Origin: Gammaproteobacteria bacterium
GTDB taxonomy: Bacteria; Pseudomonadota; Gammaproteobacteria; Eutrophobiales; Eutrophobiaceae
Direction of reading: 5' to 3'
Length of the DNA: 64,000 bases
NCBI GenBank assembly: GCA_965221695.1
Contig: OZ244905.1
Span: 3,424,001 to 3,488,000, forward strand
Part shown: positions 31,573 to 39,322 of the stretch, piece after piece
Layout: the number at the start of each line of letters is the position of its first letter
How positions within the stretch are numbered: position 1 is the first letter of the stretch
The notes under the pieces: generated by a model
Told to the model about the DNA's origin: nothing
What the model saw: only the letters and a program-made list of their open reading frames with translations
Databases searched by the model: none
Made by a program: the position numbers and the translations under genes

Positions 31573-32268
31573 TCATGAGCAATAATGTTTCAGGATGTTG
31601 ATAAACCTGTTACGCGGCATAGATTCGGCGCCCAGGCTTTCCAGGTGGCTGGAATGTACCTGGCAATCTATGAGGCGGAAACGGCGCTTGTCCAGCATGT
31701 CTGCCAAGCGCGCCAGCGCGACCTTGGACGCATCGGTCTCGCGGCTGAACATGGACTCGCCGAAAAACACCCTGCCGATGACCAGGCCATAAAGTCCACC
31801 AGCCAGCGTCCCTTCATGCCAGCATTCGCACGAGATGGCATGCCCCAGGCGGTGCAGCCTGATATATGCCTCAGCCATCTCGGCTGTTATCCAGGTGCTG
31901 ACATCGTTACCGCGCGGCGCTGAGCAACCCTGCACCACTTGCGCAAATGCCTGGTTGAAAGAGACTTTGAATTTGTTTCGTTTCAGAGTCCGAGCCAGAC
32001 TGCGGCTGATCTTGAGCTGTCCCGGTTCCAGCACACAGCGCGGGTCCGGCGACCACCACAGAATCGGTTGCCCCTGGCTGTACCAGGGAAAAATACCGCG
32101 CCGGTAGGCATTCAGCAACGTATCGGGTTCCAGGTTGCCGCCGATAGCCAGCAGCCCGTCCGGTTGGCGCAGGGCTTTTGTGACGTCAGGCAGGTTTGCG
32201 ACGATACGATTGTCCGCGACCCAGAAGAATTGCCCGCCTGCTATCTGACCGGTACCCGCTTGCGCCAT
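31573..32268 (-). CDS. aat: Leucyl/phenylalanyl-tRNA--protein transferase
   Basis: PDGLLAIGG, AYRRGIFPW, WWSPDPR, GGLYG, FFGESMFS, DASKVAL, IDCQ. Adjacent to infA. Confidence 0.96.
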   Translation of the reverse strand: MAQAGTGQIAGGQFFWVADNRIVANLPDVTKALRQPDGLLAIGGNLEPDTLLNAYRRGIFPWYSQGQPILWWSPDPRCVLEPGQLKISRSLARTLKRNKFKVSFNQAFAQVVQGCSAPRGNDVSTWITAEMAEAYIRLHRLGHAISCECWHEGTLAGGLYGLVIGRVFFGESMFSRETDASKVALARLADMLDKRRFRLIDCQVHSSHLESLGAESMPRNRFINILKHYCS

Positions 32269-32286: not shown

Positions 32287-33261
32287 CTAACCGCCAAAAA
32301 AATCCAGCAACAGGCGGTTTACCGTAGCAGGTTGTTCCAGCATGAACCAATGCCCGGCGTCCTCTATGCGTTCATAGCGCCAGGGTCCCGACACGTTGAT
32401 ACGCGACTCCTGCATCTGTTTTTCCTTCAGGAACGGGTCGGCGCTGCTCCAGATGCCCATTACCGGCATGTCTACCAGGGGATAGTTGAGGCCGGTATGC
32501 AGCCCGCCCCAGCCCCGGGTGTTGGCGCGGTACCAGTTCAACGCCGCAGTCAGCGCGCCGGGACGTGACAGGTCCCGGATAAAATGATCCTGGTCGCCGC
32601 TGTCGCGGGTGATACGCCTGAAGAAGTCCCAGTCGTTCGCGGTCAATGCGTTCTCCGCGATCCCGGTCTTGTTGAAGAAATCGAAATACCAGGACGCCTC
32701 TCTCTGCTCAATGGTGTCCCAACCGGGATTGCCCGAAGAGCCGACCGACATCACGACCAGTTGCTCGAAGCGCTCCGGTAGGGTCGCGGCCATCACCCAT
32801 GCGAGCCCGGCCCCGAAGTCGTGGCCGACCAGCCTGGCCTTTTTTATCTCAAGTTGGTCCATGATGCCGATGATGTCTCCGGCAAGCAGTTCGATGCGAT
32901 AATGCTCGACCCCATCGGGACGGCTGGCATGGCCGAAACCGCGTTGGTCCGGCGCGATGACCCGGTAGCCGCCATCGGCAATCGCCTGTACCTGGTAGCG
33001 CCAAACCTCGCGCGAATCCGGGAAGCCATGCAGGAACACCACGTCCGGTCCCTCTCCGTACACGGTGACCGGAAACACCAGGTCATTGACGGTCACGGTC
33101 CTGGAATGGGCTGACATGTCGAAGGGTGTTACGGTTTCCTGCTGCGCCAGGCAAGCCTGGCAACAGAGCAGGATCATGATTGTACTGAGGATGGGTTTGC
33201 CGATCTGGCGGGCGCGTGCTGGCATAGTCTGCGGATAGAAATATCTGATTCTTGCGCACAT
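32287..33261 (-). CDS. Alpha/beta hydrolase, epoxide hydrolase type, with a probable signal peptide
   Basis: HGFP, APDQRGFG, Asp nucleophile GHDFGA, SWY and NWYRAN tyrosines, AGHW. Alternative start at 33225. Confidence 0.85.
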   Translation of the reverse strand: MCARIRYFYPQTMPARARQIGKPILSTIMILLCCQACLAQQETVTPFDMSAHSRTVTVNDLVFPVTVYGEGPDVVFLHGFPDSREVWRYQVQAIADGGYRVIAPDQRGFGHASRPDGVEHYRIELLAGDIIGIMDQLEIKKARLVGHDFGAGLAWVMAATLPERFEQLVVMSVGSSGNPGWDTIEQREASWYFDFFNKTGIAENALTANDWDFFRRITRDSGDQDHFIRDLSRPGALTAALNWYRANTRGWGGLHTGLNYPLVDMPVMGIWSSADPFLKEKQMQESRINVSGPWRYERIEDAGHWFMLEQPATVNRLLLDFFGG

Positions 33262-33353
33262 GATACGTTACAATTTACCAGGCTGAAAGCGCGCACTAAT
33301 TTAGTAGTGAAAGTCAGGCAAAATAATGTATCGCCTGCGGCGATAATTTTTTC

Positions 33354-33441
33354 ACTGGATTCCCGTTTACACGGGAATGGGGTGGGGGCACTTGCGTGAG
33401 CACTGCCACCGTACCACTCCCACGAAAGTGGGAGTCCAGTC
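33354..33441. repeat. Inverted doublet of dRS3/REP-like hairpins
   Basis: ACTGGATTCCC-GTTTACAC-GGGAATGG at 33354-33380 and, in the opposite orientation, CCGTACCACTCCC-ACGAAAGT-GGGAGTCCAGTC at 33409-33441. Confidence 0.75.
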
Positions 33442-33500
33442 AAATACTGTGCCGCCCGCAGGGCGGCCCTTTGTAAATATGAAATCTACAGGTTTATGAA

Positions 33501-34880
33501 TTGAAACATCTGGCGTACATTGCGCTTGGCGCACTGCTTGCCCTGCTCGGCAATAACTTCTTCGCCAGTTCGACTAAGCCTGATTTGCAGCGTCTTTACA
33601 TGCAAAGCATGGCCGTGAAAGACCAGCCCCCGGTCGTCTTTATCCACGGCATCCTCGGCAGTAAACTCAAACATGAGCAGACCGACGAAGAACTATGGTT
33701 CGGGCCTTTATGGAAATTGCTGTTTGATCATCATTATGACCTGGCGATGGGCATTGATCCGGTCACGTTGCAGCCGCAGCCCGGCGCGCTAAAGGCGTTT
33801 GCGATTGCAGACAATACGGCCGGCAAGGACTACTACGGGAACGTGCTGCGCACCCTGGAGGAAGTGGGCAACTATCAGAAGGCGATGCCCGGCCAGGAAA
33901 TCCGCGCGCAGACAAAGTATTACTATGAGTTTTACTACGATTGGCGACTGGACAACGCAGTAAACGCGGCGCGCCTCGCGGATTTTATTGATCGCATCAG
34001 GTTGGACCACGACAATCCGGACCTGAAGGTCGATATTGTCGCACACAGCATGGGTGGCCTGATTGCCCGGTACTACATACGTTACGGCCGCGCCGATGTA
34101 TTGGACAGCAACGATTTCCCGGTAAACATGTACGGCGCAGAGCGGGTCAGGCGCGTTGTTCTGCTGGGGACTCCCAGCCTGGGGTCGGTAAAAATTCTGA
34201 ACGCGTTTATCGATGGCATCCAGGTCGGCTTCAGGAAGATCAATACCGAGATCCTGGTGACCATGCCGAGCCTGTACCAGTTGTTGCCGCATCCCATCAA
34301 TACCTGGATCGTGACTGCCGAGGGCGCGCCGCTGGCGCGTGACATATTCGATGTGAACCTGTGGCGGCGTTTCAAGTGGTCGATCTTTGATGAGGATACT
34401 CGTGCTCGCATCCGCGCCCGATATGATAATACTGAGGAGGCTGAAGCCTATCTCAAGACCCTGGACGCGTATTTTGACAAATCACTGGAGCGTGCCCGGC
34501 GCTTTGTCTGGTCCTTGACCGTGCCGTTGCCAGAGGAACATCCGCGGTTGATCGTATTTGGCGGCGGTTGCGCGCTGACCCCGGCCCGGATCCTGGTTGA
34601 AGAAGTGGAGGGCATATCGGAAATCCGGATGTACCCGGACGAGGTCACGCAACCGGTTCCGGGTGTGGATTACGATATGCTGCTGTTGGAACCGGGTGAC
34701 GGCGCAGTGACCAAGGCGTCCCTGCTGGGGCGCAACACCCTGGACCCGAGCGTGCCGCGCCATGAATACAGTTTTTTCCCGTTGCACCATGCATTCCTGC
34801 TCTGCGAAAAACACGACAGTCTGACCGGCAATATCAGTTTCCGGGATAATTTACTGAATACACTGTTATCGGTGGATTGA
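33501..34880 (+). CDS. Exported lipase/acyltransferase (LCAT/PGAP1-like alpha/beta hydrolase)
   Basis: Hydrophobic N-terminus, FIHGILGS, YYDWR, AHSMGG nucleophile elbow, LGTP, GDGAV, late His. Confidence 0.8.
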   Translation: MKHLAYIALGALLALLGNNFFASSTKPDLQRLYMQSMAVKDQPPVVFIHGILGSKLKHEQTDEELWFGPLWKLLFDHHYDLAMGIDPVTLQPQPGALKAFAIADNTAGKDYYGNVLRTLEEVGNYQKAMPGQEIRAQTKYYYEFYYDWRLDNAVNAARLADFIDRIRLDHDNPDLKVDIVAHSMGGLIARYYIRYGRADVLDSNDFPVNMYGAERVRRVVLLGTPSLGSVKILNAFIDGIQVGFRKINTEILVTMPSLYQLLPHPINTWIVTAEGAPLARDIFDVNLWRRFKWSIFDEDTRARIRARYDNTEEAEAYLKTLDAYFDKSLERARRFVWSLTVPLPEEHPRLIVFGGGCALTPARILVEEVEGISEIRMYPDEVTQPVPGVDYDMLLLEPGDGAVTKASLLGRNTLDPSVPRHEYSFFPLHHAFLLCEKHDSLTGNISFRDNLLNTLLSVD

Positions 34881-34965
34881 TTGTGAGCGCAATAATAATC
34901 GCATTTTTTGTTTTGTGTACTCTGACAGGCCTACAGCGGTTCGTCCTGCGGGCGACATAATAGTA

Positions 34966-34998
34966 GACTGGACTCCCGCTGTTGCGGGAGTGGTACGG
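34966..34998. repeat. dRS3/REP-like hairpin
   Basis: GACTGGACTCCC-GCTGTTGC-GGGAGTGGTACGG; flanks are identical to the reverse complement of 33409-33441. Confidence 0.75.
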
Positions 34999-35079
34999 AG
35001 GTATAGACTGGCCTGTGCCAAAATTTAGATGCAGTCGCGACCTGCAGAGTTCTGATCATGAGGGTTTGGAATTGAGGCT

Positions 35080-36804
35080 ATGAGAATAATCGTGTCATTG
35101 AAATCAATAATTCTTGCGCTGTCGTTATTCGGCGTTGGCGTGCAGGCCGTTGCACTCACCGCTCTTCAGGATGAAGCGGCATTGCATCCGGACAATATCA
35201 TTTACCTGGAGCAGAACTGGGATGATGCCGACCGGCAGTGGTTCTACCACCTGGACCAGGGTTCCAGCCTGTTGTCCTATGACTTGTTCCTGCGCCTGGA
35301 GCGGCACGACAGTGAAGAGTTGTTGCGCGACCCGCTGAACATGATGCGCTTCGGTTTCCTGCCCGGGGTCAGGTCGCGGACAAATCCCGACGCGTTGCCC
35401 ATCGGTTTCGCCCGCAATCGGGACAATGTCGGCCTGACCTGCGCGGCCTGCCATACCCAGCATATCCGTTATAACGGCACGCTGCTGCGCATTGACGGTG
35501 GCCAGGCCATGATGGACCTGCAACTTTTTCTGGAACACCTGGAGCAGTCTCTTGCGCGCACGCTCAGCGACAATGATAAGCTGGATCGGCTGAGCCGGCG
35601 CTTCCATGACGGCGGACCCACACAGGAGGAATTCCTGGCATTGAAGAGCCTGCTGCAACAGGACTTTGCCCGCATCAGCGACACCAACCGCCGCAACCAC
35701 ACGCGCGTCCCGTATGGCTTTACGCGCCTGGATGCGTTCGGAGCGATCCTGAACAAGAGCCTGTCCCTGACCGGCGTGGAAGACAATTTCAATGAACCGG
35801 ACGCCCCCACCAGTTATCCTTACCTGTGGGATACGCCGCAGCATGATTACGTGGAGTGGAACGGTTCCCAGGCCAATTCCCATGTCGGCGCGCTGGCAAG
35901 AAATGTCGGCGAGGTGATCGGGGTTTTCGGCCGGGTGGATACCACACCGGCGACCTGGCTGGGCTTCTACGACGCCGGCTATCCCTCCACGGTGCGCGCG
36001 GACAACCTGCGCGCGGTAGAAAAAAAAGTTGCCGAATTGCATTCACCGCTGTGGCCGGCGGTCTTTCCCGCCATCGATCATGAGCAGGCAGCGCGGGGCA
36101 GGGCGCTATATGAAACCTATTGTCTCAGTTGCCACCAGGATATCGACCGGACCGATCCGGGACGCAGCATCAAGGTGCGCATGAGTAGCATAGAGAAACT
36201 GGGAACCGATCCGAAAATGGCGAAGAATGTCGTCGAAATACTTGGAAAAACCGGCATTTTCCGCGATAAACCACGCTTCTACCTAGTTGGGTCCGTGCTC
36301 GGTGAGGAGGAACCCGCGCTGTTTGTGCTGAACAACCTGATTGGCGGCGTGCTGAGGAACAACCCGTTGCAGACCTTGCTGGCAATCAGGGATGCGAAAA
36401 AACTGGGTCACCCGGATGTAATACATCCGCCGAAATACCTGGACGGGGCGCTCCTCGAAAGCGGCAAGACGGTTACCGACCGGGCGTTGCTGGCTTACAA
36501 GGCAAGACCGTTGAACGGCGTCTGGAGCAGCGCGCCCTTCCTGCATAACGGTTCGGTCGCGAATCTGTATGAACTGATGCTGCCCGCTACCGAGCGCAGC
36601 GATACGTTCTACATCGGTAGTTGGGAATATGACCCGGTAAAGGTCGGTTATGTCGACCGTCCGGCGCCCGGCGCATTCATGGTTGATACCAGCCTGCCAG
36701 GCAACAGCAATGCCGGACATGAGTACGGCGCCGGCGCTGACGGGCTGCCTATCCTGACCGATGAGGAAATATGGGCATTGGTTGAATACTTAAAAACGCT
36801 TTAA
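35080..36804 (+). CDS. Exported di-heme cytochrome c enzyme, RoxA / fatty-acid di-heme CCP (oleate dioxygenase-like) family
   Basis: Signal peptide, LEQNW...WFY...QGS, CAACH and CLSCH heme motifs, YKARPLNGVWSSAPFLHNGSV, GNSNAGHEYG, LVEYLKTL. Confidence 0.8.
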   Translation: MRIIVSLKSIILALSLFGVGVQAVALTALQDEAALHPDNIIYLEQNWDDADRQWFYHLDQGSSLLSYDLFLRLERHDSEELLRDPLNMMRFGFLPGVRSRTNPDALPIGFARNRDNVGLTCAACHTQHIRYNGTLLRIDGGQAMMDLQLFLEHLEQSLARTLSDNDKLDRLSRRFHDGGPTQEEFLALKSLLQQDFARISDTNRRNHTRVPYGFTRLDAFGAILNKSLSLTGVEDNFNEPDAPTSYPYLWDTPQHDYVEWNGSQANSHVGALARNVGEVIGVFGRVDTTPATWLGFYDAGYPSTVRADNLRAVEKKVAELHSPLWPAVFPAIDHEQAARGRALYETYCLSCHQDIDRTDPGRSIKVRMSSIEKLGTDPKMAKNVVEILGKTGIFRDKPRFYLVGSVLGEEEPALFVLNNLIGGVLRNNPLQTLLAIRDAKKLGHPDVIHPPKYLDGALLESGKTVTDRALLAYKARPLNGVWSSAPFLHNGSVANLYELMLPATERSDTFYIGSWEYDPVKVGYVDRPAPGAFMVDTSLPGNSNAGHEYGAGADGLPILTDEEIWALVEYLKTL

Positions 36805-36852
36805 CCTGAACGTAGTGACGGACAAGTCCGAATAGAACCGGTCAATTACCCG

Positions 36853-38043
36853 ATGACACACAGATTTCAATTTGCCGCTGCACGCGCTTGCCGGAACTCC
36901 GGGATAACCGGGATTTGCCATGGGAACAGGTTGCCGGCCGGCTGTATGCCGGCGTTTGCCGCGCTGGTTCTGGCCGTTATTCTTGCAGGTTGCGCCGATA
37001 AGGATTTCAGCAATGAAGTACTGCGGGAGGACGAGGTGGAGCAGGGCGAGGCTGCCCGGACCAGCTTCGAACGGCTGGTGGAGGAATATCGAACCACGTA
37101 TGTCGCCCGCGGCGCCCATGCCAAGGCCCATGCCTGCGTGCGGGCTTATTTCGATGTGCTGCCGGATCTCCGCAGCGAGTTCCGTTACGGCGTGTTTGCC
37201 GAGCCAGGTAGGCGTTACCGGACCTGGGTACGGTTTTCCAACGGCCATTTCAACCTGGCGACCAGCCAGGATTACAACAACGACGCCAGGGGCATGGCGC
37301 TGAAGCTGATGGGGATTCGCGGCAAACCGCTTGAACGGGATGGCATCAACGGTTCGACACAGGACTTTCTGATGGCAAACACGCCGGTGTTTTTTGTCAG
37401 GAACATGGCGGATTACAATTCATTTATCGCCAAGCCGGAAAACCTGAGGGCTTTTTTCTTCCCTGGCTTAAATCCGTTCAAATGGCGCGTCAAGGAATTG
37501 TTCGCGGGCAAACGAGTGCTTTCCCCGCCACCTGCGAGCGTGCTTGACCCGGTGTATTTCAGCATCACGCCTTATAAACTGGGCCCGCGCAACATCAAGT
37601 TCGCAGCGAGGCCCTGCAATGCGCGCGCCGCGGACAAACCGGTCATCGATGAGCATACCGGGCCTGATTTCTTGCGTGAGCAACTGCGTGAAGAACTGGA
37701 CCACACCGCCGCCTGTTTCATCTTCCAGGTGCAGGCGCAGCCCCTGGACGCAGACGGACTGTCCCTGGATGATGCAACCCAAGCCTGGACTGAAGAAGAT
37801 GTCCCGTTTGTGCCGCTGGCGACGATCAGCATTCCGCGGCAGGATTTCTCAGGCGATCAACAGGCCCAATTCTGTGAAAACCTGTCATTCTCGCCCTGGC
37901 ATGCATTGCCGGAACATCGCCCTTTGGGACAGCTTAATCGTTTGCGCAGACATGCCTACCCTGCCTCATCCGACTATCGGCACGAACAGAACCAGGCGCA
38001 GGTACCGAACGCGCTAGCCTACTGGCGGTCCGGAAATCTATGA
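36853..38043 (+). CDS. Short catalase-related heme protein (allene oxide synthase/hydroperoxide lyase-like), probable lipoprotein
   Basis: RGAHAK distal His, VRFSNG, DARGMALK, QDFLMAN, FSPWH..PEHRPLG.LNR.R...Y proximal Tyr. Lipobox VILAGC; likely start at ATG 36946. Confidence 0.8.
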   Translation: MTHRFQFAAARACRNSGITGICHGNRLPAGCMPAFAALVLAVILAGCADKDFSNEVLREDEVEQGEAARTSFERLVEEYRTTYVARGAHAKAHACVRAYFDVLPDLRSEFRYGVFAEPGRRYRTWVRFSNGHFNLATSQDYNNDARGMALKLMGIRGKPLERDGINGSTQDFLMANTPVFFVRNMADYNSFIAKPENLRAFFFPGLNPFKWRVKELFAGKRVLSPPPASVLDPVYFSITPYKLGPRNIKFAARPCNARAADKPVIDEHTGPDFLREQLREELDHTAACFIFQVQAQPLDADGLSLDDATQAWTEEDVPFVPLATISIPRQDFSGDQQAQFCENLSFSPWHALPEHRPLGQLNRLRRHAYPASSDYRHEQNQAQVPNALAYWRSGNL

Positions 38044-38167: not shown

Positions 38168-39322
38168 CTACTCTGATCCCGGAGATCCGGTTTTGTAGGG
38201 CAAATGCGCGCTTAAGACGTCCACGTATGAATTCAGTTGCGCGGTCTCCTGTTGCAGGTAGTCTGCCACCGCGCGTCGGAAGCCATGATGCTGTATCCAA
38301 TGCCCGGATAGCGCCAGGAATGGTTCAAAGCCACGGTTCAGCTTATGCTCGCCCTGTACGCCCGCATCGACCGAACTCAGCCGGTGTTCCAGGCAATACT
38401 CAATGGTCTGGTAGTAGCACAGTTCAAAATGCAGGTTTGCCAGGTATCTGTCGCAACCCCAATGCCTGCCATATAAGGTGGTATCGCTGAGCATCGCAAA
38501 CGCGCCGGCGACATATTCATTGCCTTGTTTCGCCAGTATCAGCAAGGTGTTGTCCGGCATTGCCGTGCTCAGGTGGTGAAAGAAGTCCAGTGTCAGGCGT
38601 GGGCTGCCCCAGCGGCGGTAGAACGTGCTGCAGTAAAACTCGTAGAATACGTCCCAATGCTCTTCGGTGATGTCCGCGCCGCGCAGGCGTGCGATATCAA
38701 GGTTTTCCTCCCGGACCGCCCTGCGTTCCCGCCTAATCTGTTTGCGCCGCTTTGATGTCAGGCTTTGCAGGAAGTCGTCGAAGTTCTCATAATCGCGGTT
38801 ATGCCAGTGGAACTGGCAGGTGTGGCGCAGTAACAGGTCGTTATCTGTCAGGATTTTCGGGTCATCTTCCTGCGTGAACAGGCAGTGGAATGAAGACAGG
38901 TGAGAGCGTTCCGCCAGTTCTGCGACGGTCTTGATGATCAAGGACTTAATCGCGCGATCTCTGCCGGCGGAATGGTTGATGAGAATGCGCGGGCCACATA
39001 CGGGAGTGAAAGGAATGGCTGATACCAGTTTCGGATAATATCTGCCGCCGGCTCTTTCAAAAGCATCGGCCCAGGCCCAGTCAAACACAAACTCGCCGTG
39101 TGAGTTGTCCCTGATATAAAGCGGCATCGCCCCCAGCAGTTTATCCGCAGACGTCGCCAGCAGGTGGCAAGGCTCCCAGCCGTGTCCTTCCAGGCACTTG
39201 AAGCGCTCCAGGCCGTTCAGGAAGTCGTATTGTAAAAACGGGTTGTTGTTGCGCTCCAGTTGATCCCATTCCGCCTTATCAACTTGGTCAAGGCTTCTGG
39301 TCTGCCTGATCGTGATTTCCAT
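38168..39322 (-). CDS. FemAB-like GNAT protein (DUF482)
   Basis: SHGEFVFDWAWA, YYPKLVSAIPFTP, LYGRHWG, LHFELCYYQ, AGVQGEHKL.RGF. Confidence 0.9.
   Translation of the reverse strand: MEITIRQTRSLDQVDKAEWDQLERNNNPFLQYDFLNGLERFKCLEGHGWEPCHLLATSADKLLGAMPLYIRDNSHGEFVFDWAWADAFERAGGRYYPKLVSAIPFTPVCGPRILINHSAGRDRAIKSLIIKTVAELAERSHLSSFHCLFTQEDDPKILTDNDLLLRHTCQFHWHNRDYENFDDFLQSLTSKRRKQIRRERRAVREENLDIARLRGADITEEHWDVFYEFYCSTFYRRWGSPRLTLDFFHHLSTAMPDNTLLILAKQGNEYVAGAFAMLSDTTLYGRHWGCDRYLANLHFELCYYQTIEYCLEHRLSSVDAGVQGEHKLNRGFEPFLALSGHWIQHHGFRRAVADYLQQETAQLNSYVDVLSAHLPYKTGSPGSE

Follow-up and report, generated by a model that had tools for sequence, protein, structure and literature searches.

We analysed a stretch of 64,000 nucleotides from the genome of a Gammaproteobacteria bacterium (contig OZ244905.1, positions 3,424,001 to 3,488,000), referred to here as the window. 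It carries three adjacent genes, the trio, which encode an LCAT-like lipase, a periplasmic di-haem c-type protein and a short haem protein with a catalase core, the mini-catalase. We observed that dozens of bacterial species have retained the trio, and this retention points to a so far undescribed form of lipid oxidation outside the cytoplasm. We consider the chances evenly balanced that the trio would serve bacterial fatty-acid oxygenation with a partner of the catalase fold, a combination that would be new. The original prediction, made from the letters of the window, had placed in the same module a fourth gene, which encodes a hydrolase of the epoxide hydrolase family, and had called for a survey of the co-occurrence of all four genes. 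In this survey the trio was upheld and the fourth member was not.

Conservation of the gene trio

We scanned genomes at one per species and obtained 80 loci with a homologue of the di-haem gene (51-95% identity), in which the partner genes were sought by tblastn. Lipase was present in 68 of these loci, mini-catalase in 73 and both partners in 64. We considered a locus to have room for the partners when there were at least 1.5 kb upstream and at least 2.7 kb downstream of the di-haem gene, and 61 of the 80 loci qualified. Among these 61, lipase and mini-catalase were each found in 59 loci, and both were found in 57. The exceptions were L034 and L064, which have no mini-catalase, and L040 and L071, which have no lipase. 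The genes follow the order lipase, di-haem, mini-catalase on the same strand, and the gaps between lipase and di-haem genes were mostly 4-208 bp. The arrangement differs in two loci (L051 and L065), where the genes of a divergent lipase (28-29% identity) and of the mini-catalase are both found downstream, on the opposite strand. With 57 of 61 loci, the clustering of these three genes goes far past what chance would give, and it upholds the earlier claim that lipase, di-haem protein and mini-catalase belong to one conserved unit.

The genes that flank the trio vary by lineage. We found aat and a FemAB-like gene, the group UDG-uvrC-pgsA, a methyltransferase gene with a large helicase-like open reading frame, and others. 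Since the flanking genes vary between lineages, the trio is kept as a unit, beyond inherited synteny. In 22 loci, mostly Methylophaga-type and Methylophilaceae, the gene of an acyltransferase-3 membrane protein (PF01757; for example L030:3408-4688, 426 amino acids) was inserted between the di-haem and mini-catalase genes. The Methylophilaceae genes were nested within the Methylophaga-type group in the di-haem tree, a pattern suggestive of transfer from one methylotroph to another. In the neighbourhoods of the surveyed loci, neither a redox regulator nor any other antioxidant gene was conserved beside the trio.

The hydrolase gene was found in only 16 of the 80 loci (14 of the 61 with room). 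In all 16 the identity of the di-haem protein was at least 71.7%, and the best locus without hydrolase had 68.3%. On this distribution we rejected the epoxide hydrolase as a fourth member of the module; the gene is confined to the genus of the window, in which housekeeping synteny is also kept. Among 18 other genomes of this genus, hydrolase was present in 16 and the di-haem gene in 15. Two genomes, G401 and G412, have neither gene, and the gap between aat and the FemAB-like gene is 70 and 18 bp, respectively. As aat and the FemAB-like gene nearly adjoin in these genomes, the four genes form an insertion block between old neighbours. The joint absence of hydrolase and trio is what would be expected from loss, or non-gain, of one contiguous block, and it is not proof of functional coupling. 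In G409 an intact aat-FemAB pair stands between the trio and the hydrolase gene, which are 39 kb from each other, and in G406, a fragmented assembly (88% complete), hydrolase alone was found. We consider the hydrolase a genus-specific local neighbour, which may or may not use the products of the trio.

The locus and the encoded proteins

All four open reading frames were found where they had been predicted (Table 1), and the motifs AHSMGG, CAACH, CLSCH, APFLHNGSV, RGAHAK and LAGC are all present. The host genome is a single contig of 3.54 Mb, and its close relatives are uncultured Gammaproteobacteria. The G+C content across the four-gene region was unremarkable. The hydrolase gene is divergent from the lipase gene: it lies 239 bp upstream of it, on the other strand. 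The numbers of predicted promoters and terminators were not above those of shuffled controls (7 vs 4.6 and 11 vs 9.1, respectively), and therefore we drew no operon boundaries from them.

Export signals had been claimed for all four genes, and we assessed them by eye. The di-haem protein and the hydrolase have N-termini of Sec type. The N-terminus of the lipase holds a single hydrophobic stretch, which is more like a membrane anchor. The lipobox (LAGC) of the mini-catalase is confined to its near relatives; in more distant homologues the N-terminus is a hydrophobic helix that lacks Cys. The claim was retained for the first two proteins and qualified for the other two.

Table 1. Coordinates of the genes of the window and of mini-catalase fusions in other loci.
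Feature	Position	Strand	Details
Epoxide-hydrolase-family alpha/beta hydrolase	32287-33261	-	324 amino acids; PF00561
LCAT-like alpha/beta-hydrolase lipase or acyltransferase	33501-34880	+	459 amino acids; PF02450; AHSMGG; trio gene 1
Periplasmic di-haem c-type protein, candidate oxygenase or peroxidase	35080-36804	+	574 amino acids; NF040606; trio gene 2
Mini-catalase, catalase-core haem protein	36853-38043	+	396 amino acids; PF00199; RGAHAK, LAGC; trio gene 3
aat, housekeeping gene bordering the four-gene block	31573-32268	-	
FemAB-like gene bordering the block on the other side	38168-39322	-	
Mini-catalase (N-terminal) + PF03098 fusion	L100:3357-6623	+	
Mini-catalase (N-terminal) + PF03098 fusion	L102:2823-6002	-	
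Mini-catalase-like N-terminus + LodA_N + LodA_C, L-lysine epsilon-oxidase type	L101:2430-5369	-	979 amino acids; E 2.4e-49 for the N-terminus

The di-haem protein matched the NCBIfam model NF040606 with 562 bits (cut-off 150) over profile positions 1-524 of 524. Its motifs are CAACH (121-125), CLSCH (348-352) and APFLHNGSV (485-493), and residues C121, C124, H125, C348, C351, H352, H489 and H547 were invariant in an alignment of 14 sequences. The equivalog models of RoxA, RoxB and RoxC gave 42.2, 50.4 and 44.3 bits, respectively, and matched only the motif region of about 40 residues. These scores are far under the cut-offs of 900-1000 bits, which refutes membership of the protein in any of the three equivalogs. 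The only Pfam matches at E <= 0.01 were PF21419, PF00034 and PF13442; CCP_MauG, the Pfam family of canonical bacterial peroxidases and MauG, gave no match at this threshold. RoxA (4b2n) was the sole relative in the PDB, with E 2e-7 for the single sequence and 5e-12 for the 14-sequence profile. The alignment covers the MauG-type motif and the C-terminal stretch, and it places GHEYG of the di-haem protein opposite GGHDF of RoxA. A Protein Atlas search returned same-family clusters only. Judged by its two CxxCH motifs, MauG-type motif, C-terminal His, Sec signal and a size about double that of an ordinary peroxidase, the protein is built like the members of the large RoxA/FadCcp group.

The lipase matched the LCAT model PF02450 in part, with 43.4 bits (cut-off 21), and Ser183 (AHSMGG), Asp400 and His438 were invariant in 19 homologues. 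The score above the cut-off and the Ser-Asp-His triad place it in the LCAT family. Its similarity to solved lipases was remote (LPLA2 4x90, E 0.015; LCAT, E 0.58). We also noted a palindrome similar to repetitive extragenic palindromic elements, ACTCCC-(N8)-GGGAGT, which has 99 sites in the 3.54-Mb genome (reversed control, 0), some of them arrayed at a period of about 125 bp. Its sole two copies in the window, at 33416-33435 and 34972-34991, flank the lipase gene.

The mini-catalase matched PF00199 with 48 bits (cut-off 25), at model positions 40-138 of 383 only, and it was the sole PF00199 match found in the genome. We prefer the start at 36853 to the internal Met at 36946, since homologue L002, which is 93% identical, has Leu at the latter position. 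The distal His (H58, RGAHAK), the proximal R334-x3-Y338 and four Cys were invariant across 27 homologues; the four Cys would suit disulfides in an exported protein. The residue preceding the distal His is Ala in the window protein, and most of the 27 homologues in the alignment have Ala or Val there. We obtained an AlphaFold2 model with a predicted local distance difference test (pLDDT) score of 85.2. Foldseek with this model returned 3e4y and 3e4w on top, with template modelling (TM) scores of 0.72-0.73 on target, followed by true catalases and by the coral allene oxide synthase 1u5u. The family profile also put 3e4w first in the PDB (E 5.2e-11), and 1u5u was found at 2.9e-5.

The core fold, the distal His, the Arg-backed proximal Tyr and a length within about 300-400 residues place this protein in the mini-catalase type of the catalase superfamily. 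We rejected its classification as a true H2O2-dismutating catalase, since the distal Asn is variable, the length is 396 vs about 500 residues and the Pfam match is partial. Classification as a catalase-related allene oxide synthase or hydroperoxide lyase was also rejected, on the Ala before the distal His and the lack of a PF00305 match in the genome. Neither lipoxygenase (PF00305) nor animal-peroxidase-type dioxygenase (PF03098) was found in the profile search of the genome; the control genomes were silent too, so these absences are weak.

The hydrolase had been described as divergent, and it turned out to be a clear member of its family. Compared with solved epoxide hydrolases, it matched 5ng7 at E 3.5e-44 and the domain of the human soluble epoxide hydrolase at about 1e-38. 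The alignment to 5ng7 was in register at HGFPD, GHDFG, SWY, NWYRAN, the Asp of SSADPFL and GHW. We take these catalytic positions to hold the HGXP oxyanion motif, the Asp nucleophile, the two ring-opening Tyr and the His/Asp relay of the family. By its motifs the protein belongs to the alpha/beta-fold epoxide hydrolases.

The wider di-haem family

In an even sample of the class, NF040606 was above the cut-off in 24 of 401 genomes, and mini-catalase was found at E <= 1e-10 in 19 of 400. We then considered a distant set of 18 loci from 17 of these genomes, with di-haem identity of 27-39%; genomes with only tandem matches of about 500 amino acids were left out. No LCAT-like lipase was detected in these 18 loci at E <= 1e-4. 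Mini-catalase adjoins the di-haem gene in L084, L091 and L093, which show 27-34% identity and belong to a separate deep clade. L089 has a lipoxygenase gene that overlaps with the di-haem gene at the end of the latter. In L094 there is a patatin gene downstream and a GMC oxidoreductase gene upstream, and in L083 a GDSL lipase gene lies upstream. Orthologous P450 genes adjoin the di-haem gene in L082, L095, L096 and L099; they span two families, and the P450 proteins of L096 and L082 are 48% identical. L096 and L099 come from the same genus and hence are not independent. These P450s are apparently cytoplasmic. We dropped the possibility that they are CYP74-like hydroperoxide enzymes, as their best PDB matches were ordinary bacterial hydroxylases and the usual Cys-ligand motif is kept. 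In the same region of L089 (6332-16061), on the side of the di-haem gene away from the lipoxygenase gene, we noted a protein of 2039 amino acids with Ser/Thr kinase, AAA_16 (STAND-type), GAF, histidine kinase and receiver domains.

We built a tree of 45 di-haem sequences by a quick maximum-likelihood search, with support given by the Shimodaira-Hasegawa-like approximate likelihood ratio test (SH-aLRT) only. In this tree the trio clade was monophyletic (SH-aLRT 100), and the group linked to P450 and GDSL lipase was its sister. The other mini-catalase-linked loci fell in a separate deep clade, together with the lipoxygenase- and patatin-linked loci.

Fusions were surveyed among 120 listed di-haem homologues longer than 1005 amino acids. 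We found a catalase domain (PF00199) in 10 of them, a Tle1-like phospholipase domain in 5 and an acetoacetate-decarboxylase-like domain in 4. Four proteins were checked individually. P0206 and P0191 consist of an N-terminal mini-catalase followed by the di-haem part, and P0177 of a phospholipase followed by the di-haem part. In P0195 the di-haem part is followed by a catalase-like stretch and then by a decarboxylase-like domain. The mini-catalase of the window aligned with P0206 by BLASTP with 27% identity over 335 residues (E 2e-16). Di-haem protein and mini-catalase are thus coupled in two ways, as neighbours in two deep clades and as fused proteins. As judged from domain assignments, the di-haem protein has acquired lipase partners from four unrelated families, namely LCAT-like, GDSL, patatin and Tle1-like. 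In agreement with the original prediction, independent neighbourhoods as well as fusions tie the di-haem family to lipases and to hydroperoxide-type haem enzymes.

Mini-catalase is also fused to other partners (Table 1). Proteins of about 1060-1090 amino acids from two Gammaproteobacterial genomes join it to an animal-haem-peroxidase domain (PF03098, E 3e-93 and 2e-83). This Pfam family includes fatty-acid dioxygenases, and by their domains the two proteins look like single-chain fusions of a dioxygenase with a hydroperoxide enzyme. In L101 a mini-catalase-like N-terminus precedes LodA domains. LodA-like oxidases release H2O2, and the L101 protein may combine an oxidase with its own scavenger of peroxide.

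Possible functions and comparison with known systems

We propose a lipid-oxygenation cascade in the envelope, in which the lipase would free acyl chains, the di-haem enzyme would oxygenate them and the mini-catalase would convert the resulting hydroperoxide. We give this proposal about equal weight for and against. We directly observed the order of the genes, their conservation, their catalytic residues and the fusions of equivalent domain types; we infer the substrates, the order of the steps and the products. The trio would be a three-gene operon, whose products would be either exposed to the periplasm or attached to the outside of the inner membrane. At the first step, the anchored LCAT-like lipase (Ser183/Asp400/His438) would release or transfer unsaturated acyl chains of membrane-type lipids. 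At the second step, the N-terminal haem (CAACH) of the di-haem enzyme would add O2, which would give a hydroperoxide or a cleaved double bond, and the C-terminal haem, probably bis-His via H352 and H547, would support the oxygenation. At the third step, the Tyr-ligated mini-catalase would consume the hydroperoxide by rearrangement, cleavage or peroxidase-type reduction. We favour this cascade because the coupling of the haem pair and the recruitment of lipases repeat the known logic of dioxygenase plus catalase-fold enzyme, and because neither a lipoxygenase or peroxidase-type dioxygenase, both weak absences, nor another catalase-fold protein was found in the genome. The motifs that the di-haem protein shares with PA2077, PA2078 and RoxA, and the fusions of mini-catalase homologues to animal-haem-peroxidase-type domains, also speak for it. 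More tentatively, we suggest that the trio may represent a widespread, lipoxygenase-free bacterial pathway of oxylipin type, in which an ancient, modular haem pair would recruit varied lipases and act on envelope lipids of marine methylotrophs and uncultured Gammaproteobacteria.

Several observations weigh against the cascade. The column of the catalase distal Asn holds N, T, D or S among the mini-catalase homologues; it is Asn in the window protein (MANTPVFF). The AlphaFold2 model of the di-haem protein, obtained from a 14-row alignment, had a pLDDT of 45.8, which is too poor for comparison of the distal pocket with RoxA or with peroxidases. Eight of the 18 distant loci have none of the lipid-type neighbours described above, and the di-haem protein of L089, beside its lipoxygenase, may consume rather than make hydroperoxides. 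Among the 120 listed long homologues, alpha-amylase-like domains were found in 9, and reprolysin-like together with histidine-phosphatase domains in 8; neither type is lipid-related, and these fusions caution against regarding the di-haem family as confined to lipids. The named records of the amylase-like and reprolysin-type fusions (P0124, P0123 and others) were mostly of Planctomycetota type. Finally, NCBIfam names NF040606 a subfamily of di-haem cytochrome c peroxidases, and 3E4W, with 3E4Y the best solved relative of the mini-catalase, is named a catalase-related peroxidase, not a synthase or lyase (PMC13613382).

Both of these names favour the main rival explanation, which we consider possible but doubtful. 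Here the trio would repair or detoxify peroxidised envelope lipids, with no synthesis: the lipase would excise oxidised acyl chains, the di-haem protein would be a cytochrome-c-dependent peroxidase of the hydroperoxides, and the mini-catalase would be a peroxidase of organic hydroperoxides. Such a role is also consistent with the mini-catalase being the only catalase-fold protein found in the genome, with the fusion of the L101 homologue to a LodA-like amino-acid oxidase, and with the lipoxygenase adjoining the di-haem gene of L089. However, two consumers of hydroperoxides would duplicate each other's role, and still the pair has stayed adjacent or fused over deep divergence. Moreover, the di-haem protein did not match CCP_MauG at E <= 0.01, its sole PDB relative is an oxygenase, and no redox regulator or other antioxidant gene is conserved alongside.

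RoxA being the only solved relative of the di-haem protein, we also considered a RoxA-like cleavage of an unsaturated substrate other than fatty acids, such as polyisoprenoids, carotenoids, side chains of hopanoids or quinones, or another hydrophobic polymer, on which the lipase would act as an esterase. The fusions to alpha-amylase-like and reprolysin-like domains fit this explanation, as they suggest a general oxidative partner of depolymerising or hydrolytic enzymes. We consider it unlikely, in view of the low scores of the protein with the RoxA, RoxB and RoxC models (42-50 bits vs cut-offs of 900-1000). The hydrolases recruited repeatedly are lipases and phospholipases, and the mini-catalase as a partner fits hydroperoxide chemistry.

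A general periplasmic defence against H2O2 by a peroxidase and a catalase, with the lipase linked for unrelated reasons, seems very unlikely. Both haem proteins belong to superfamilies best known for peroxide removal, and no other PF00199 protein was found in the genome. Against this, the lipase is linked in 59 of the 61 loci, fusions of phospholipase and di-haem protein exist, and the distal Asn of catalases is not conserved among the homologues. Mini-catalases reportedly have no catalase activity. A MauG-like maturation of a protein cofactor, by oxidative cross-linking of a periplasmic protein substrate, could draw on the MauG-type motif PFLHNGSV and on the LodA-like quinoprotein domain of L101, and is hardly credible, as no candidate quinoprotein substrate gene is conserved beside the trio, PF03150 gave no match and the linkage of the lipase would be unexplained.

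Bacterial oxylipin chemistry is known from few systems, for example lipoxygenases and the diol synthase of Pseudomonas aeruginosa. The products of the latter act in biofilm formation, virulence and cell-to-cell signalling (PMC5155153, PMC6377657). If the envelope cascade proposed here is true, it would assign a role to a di-haem family that is large (more than 4,000 proteins at E <= 0.001) and unstudied, provide catalase-fold hydroperoxide enzymes with a dioxygenase partner of a third kind, and bring envelope lipid oxidation to methylotrophs and uncultured marine Gammaproteobacteria. Some carriers of the trio belong to genera with cultured members (Methylophaga, Methylotenera), so the question is directly testable. 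We found no description of a cluster of lipase, RoxA-like di-haem protein and mini-catalase in full-text literature searches, one query of which was swamped by unrelated 'roxa' words. In the literature searched, enzymes of FadCcp type are treated for the Pseudomonas pair alone.

This pair, PA2077 (10S-dioxygenase) and PA2078 (7,10-diol synthase) of P. aeruginosa, provides the nearest comparison for the di-haem protein. These 'FadCcp' enzymes are periplasmic, of about 60-70 kDa, with two CxxCH motifs and P-[YF]-[FL]-H-N-G-S-V, as is the case here (PMC4496055). Their CxxCH motifs lie at 130 and at 375 or 365, PA2077 has PYFH553NGSVP, and the axial His is at 611 or 603. A His stands 58 residues past the motif His both here (H489 to H547) and in PA2077 (H553 to H611), and the RoxA/PA2077/PA2078-type architecture of the original prediction was therefore borne out. 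The likeness was judged from the motif layout, by comparison with Table 1 of that source. The pair was modelled on RoxA, is kin to RoxA and not to the peroxidases of 35-40 kDa, and acts on fatty acids (PMC4496055). There are also differences. The spacing of the haem motifs is 227 residues here vs 245 and 235 in PA2077 and PA2078, and the Pseudomonas system has two di-haem paralogues in series, whereas here one di-haem protein is accompanied by a mini-catalase and a lipase (PMC4496055).

With RoxA itself (4b2n), the N-terminal CxxCH region aligned weakly, and the MauG-type motif and the C-terminal His region aligned well. The likeness is limited to those segments, and a lipase and a mini-catalase take the place of rubber-degradation genes as partners.

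The best match of the mini-catalase was MAP-2744c of Mycobacterium avium subsp. paratuberculosis (33 kDa; 3E4W/3E4Y), with a Foldseek E of 2e-13 and a TM score of 0.73 on target, beside the sequence match at E 5.2e-11. The two proteins share the cut-down catalase core, with 18% identity. The structure paper of 2009 reportedly described a preference of MAP-2744c for organic hydroperoxides. MAP-2744c is cytoplasmic (PMC13613382), whereas export is predicted for the mini-catalase of the window, which also has four invariant Cys and a genetic link to a di-haem protein.

The catalase core is also shared with the coral allene oxide synthase 1u5u (Foldseek E 2.3e-12, identity 14%). The coral enzyme has Thr before the distal His, where Ala or Val stands here. 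It had been assumed in the original prediction that catalase-related enzymes of this kind are partnered with lipoxygenases. This agrees with the coral fusions, in which a lipoxygenase-type fatty-acid dioxygenase is coupled to a small catalase-fold hydroperoxide enzyme (PMC5617202), the same logic as that proposed here. The assumption was incomplete, since a cyanobacterial cyclooxygenase-like 10S-dioxygenase also works with a catalase-like lyase (cited in PMC9579011). The dioxygenase partner is thus a lipoxygenase or a cyclooxygenase-like haem enzyme in corals and cyanobacteria, and it would be a c-type di-haem protein in the trio.

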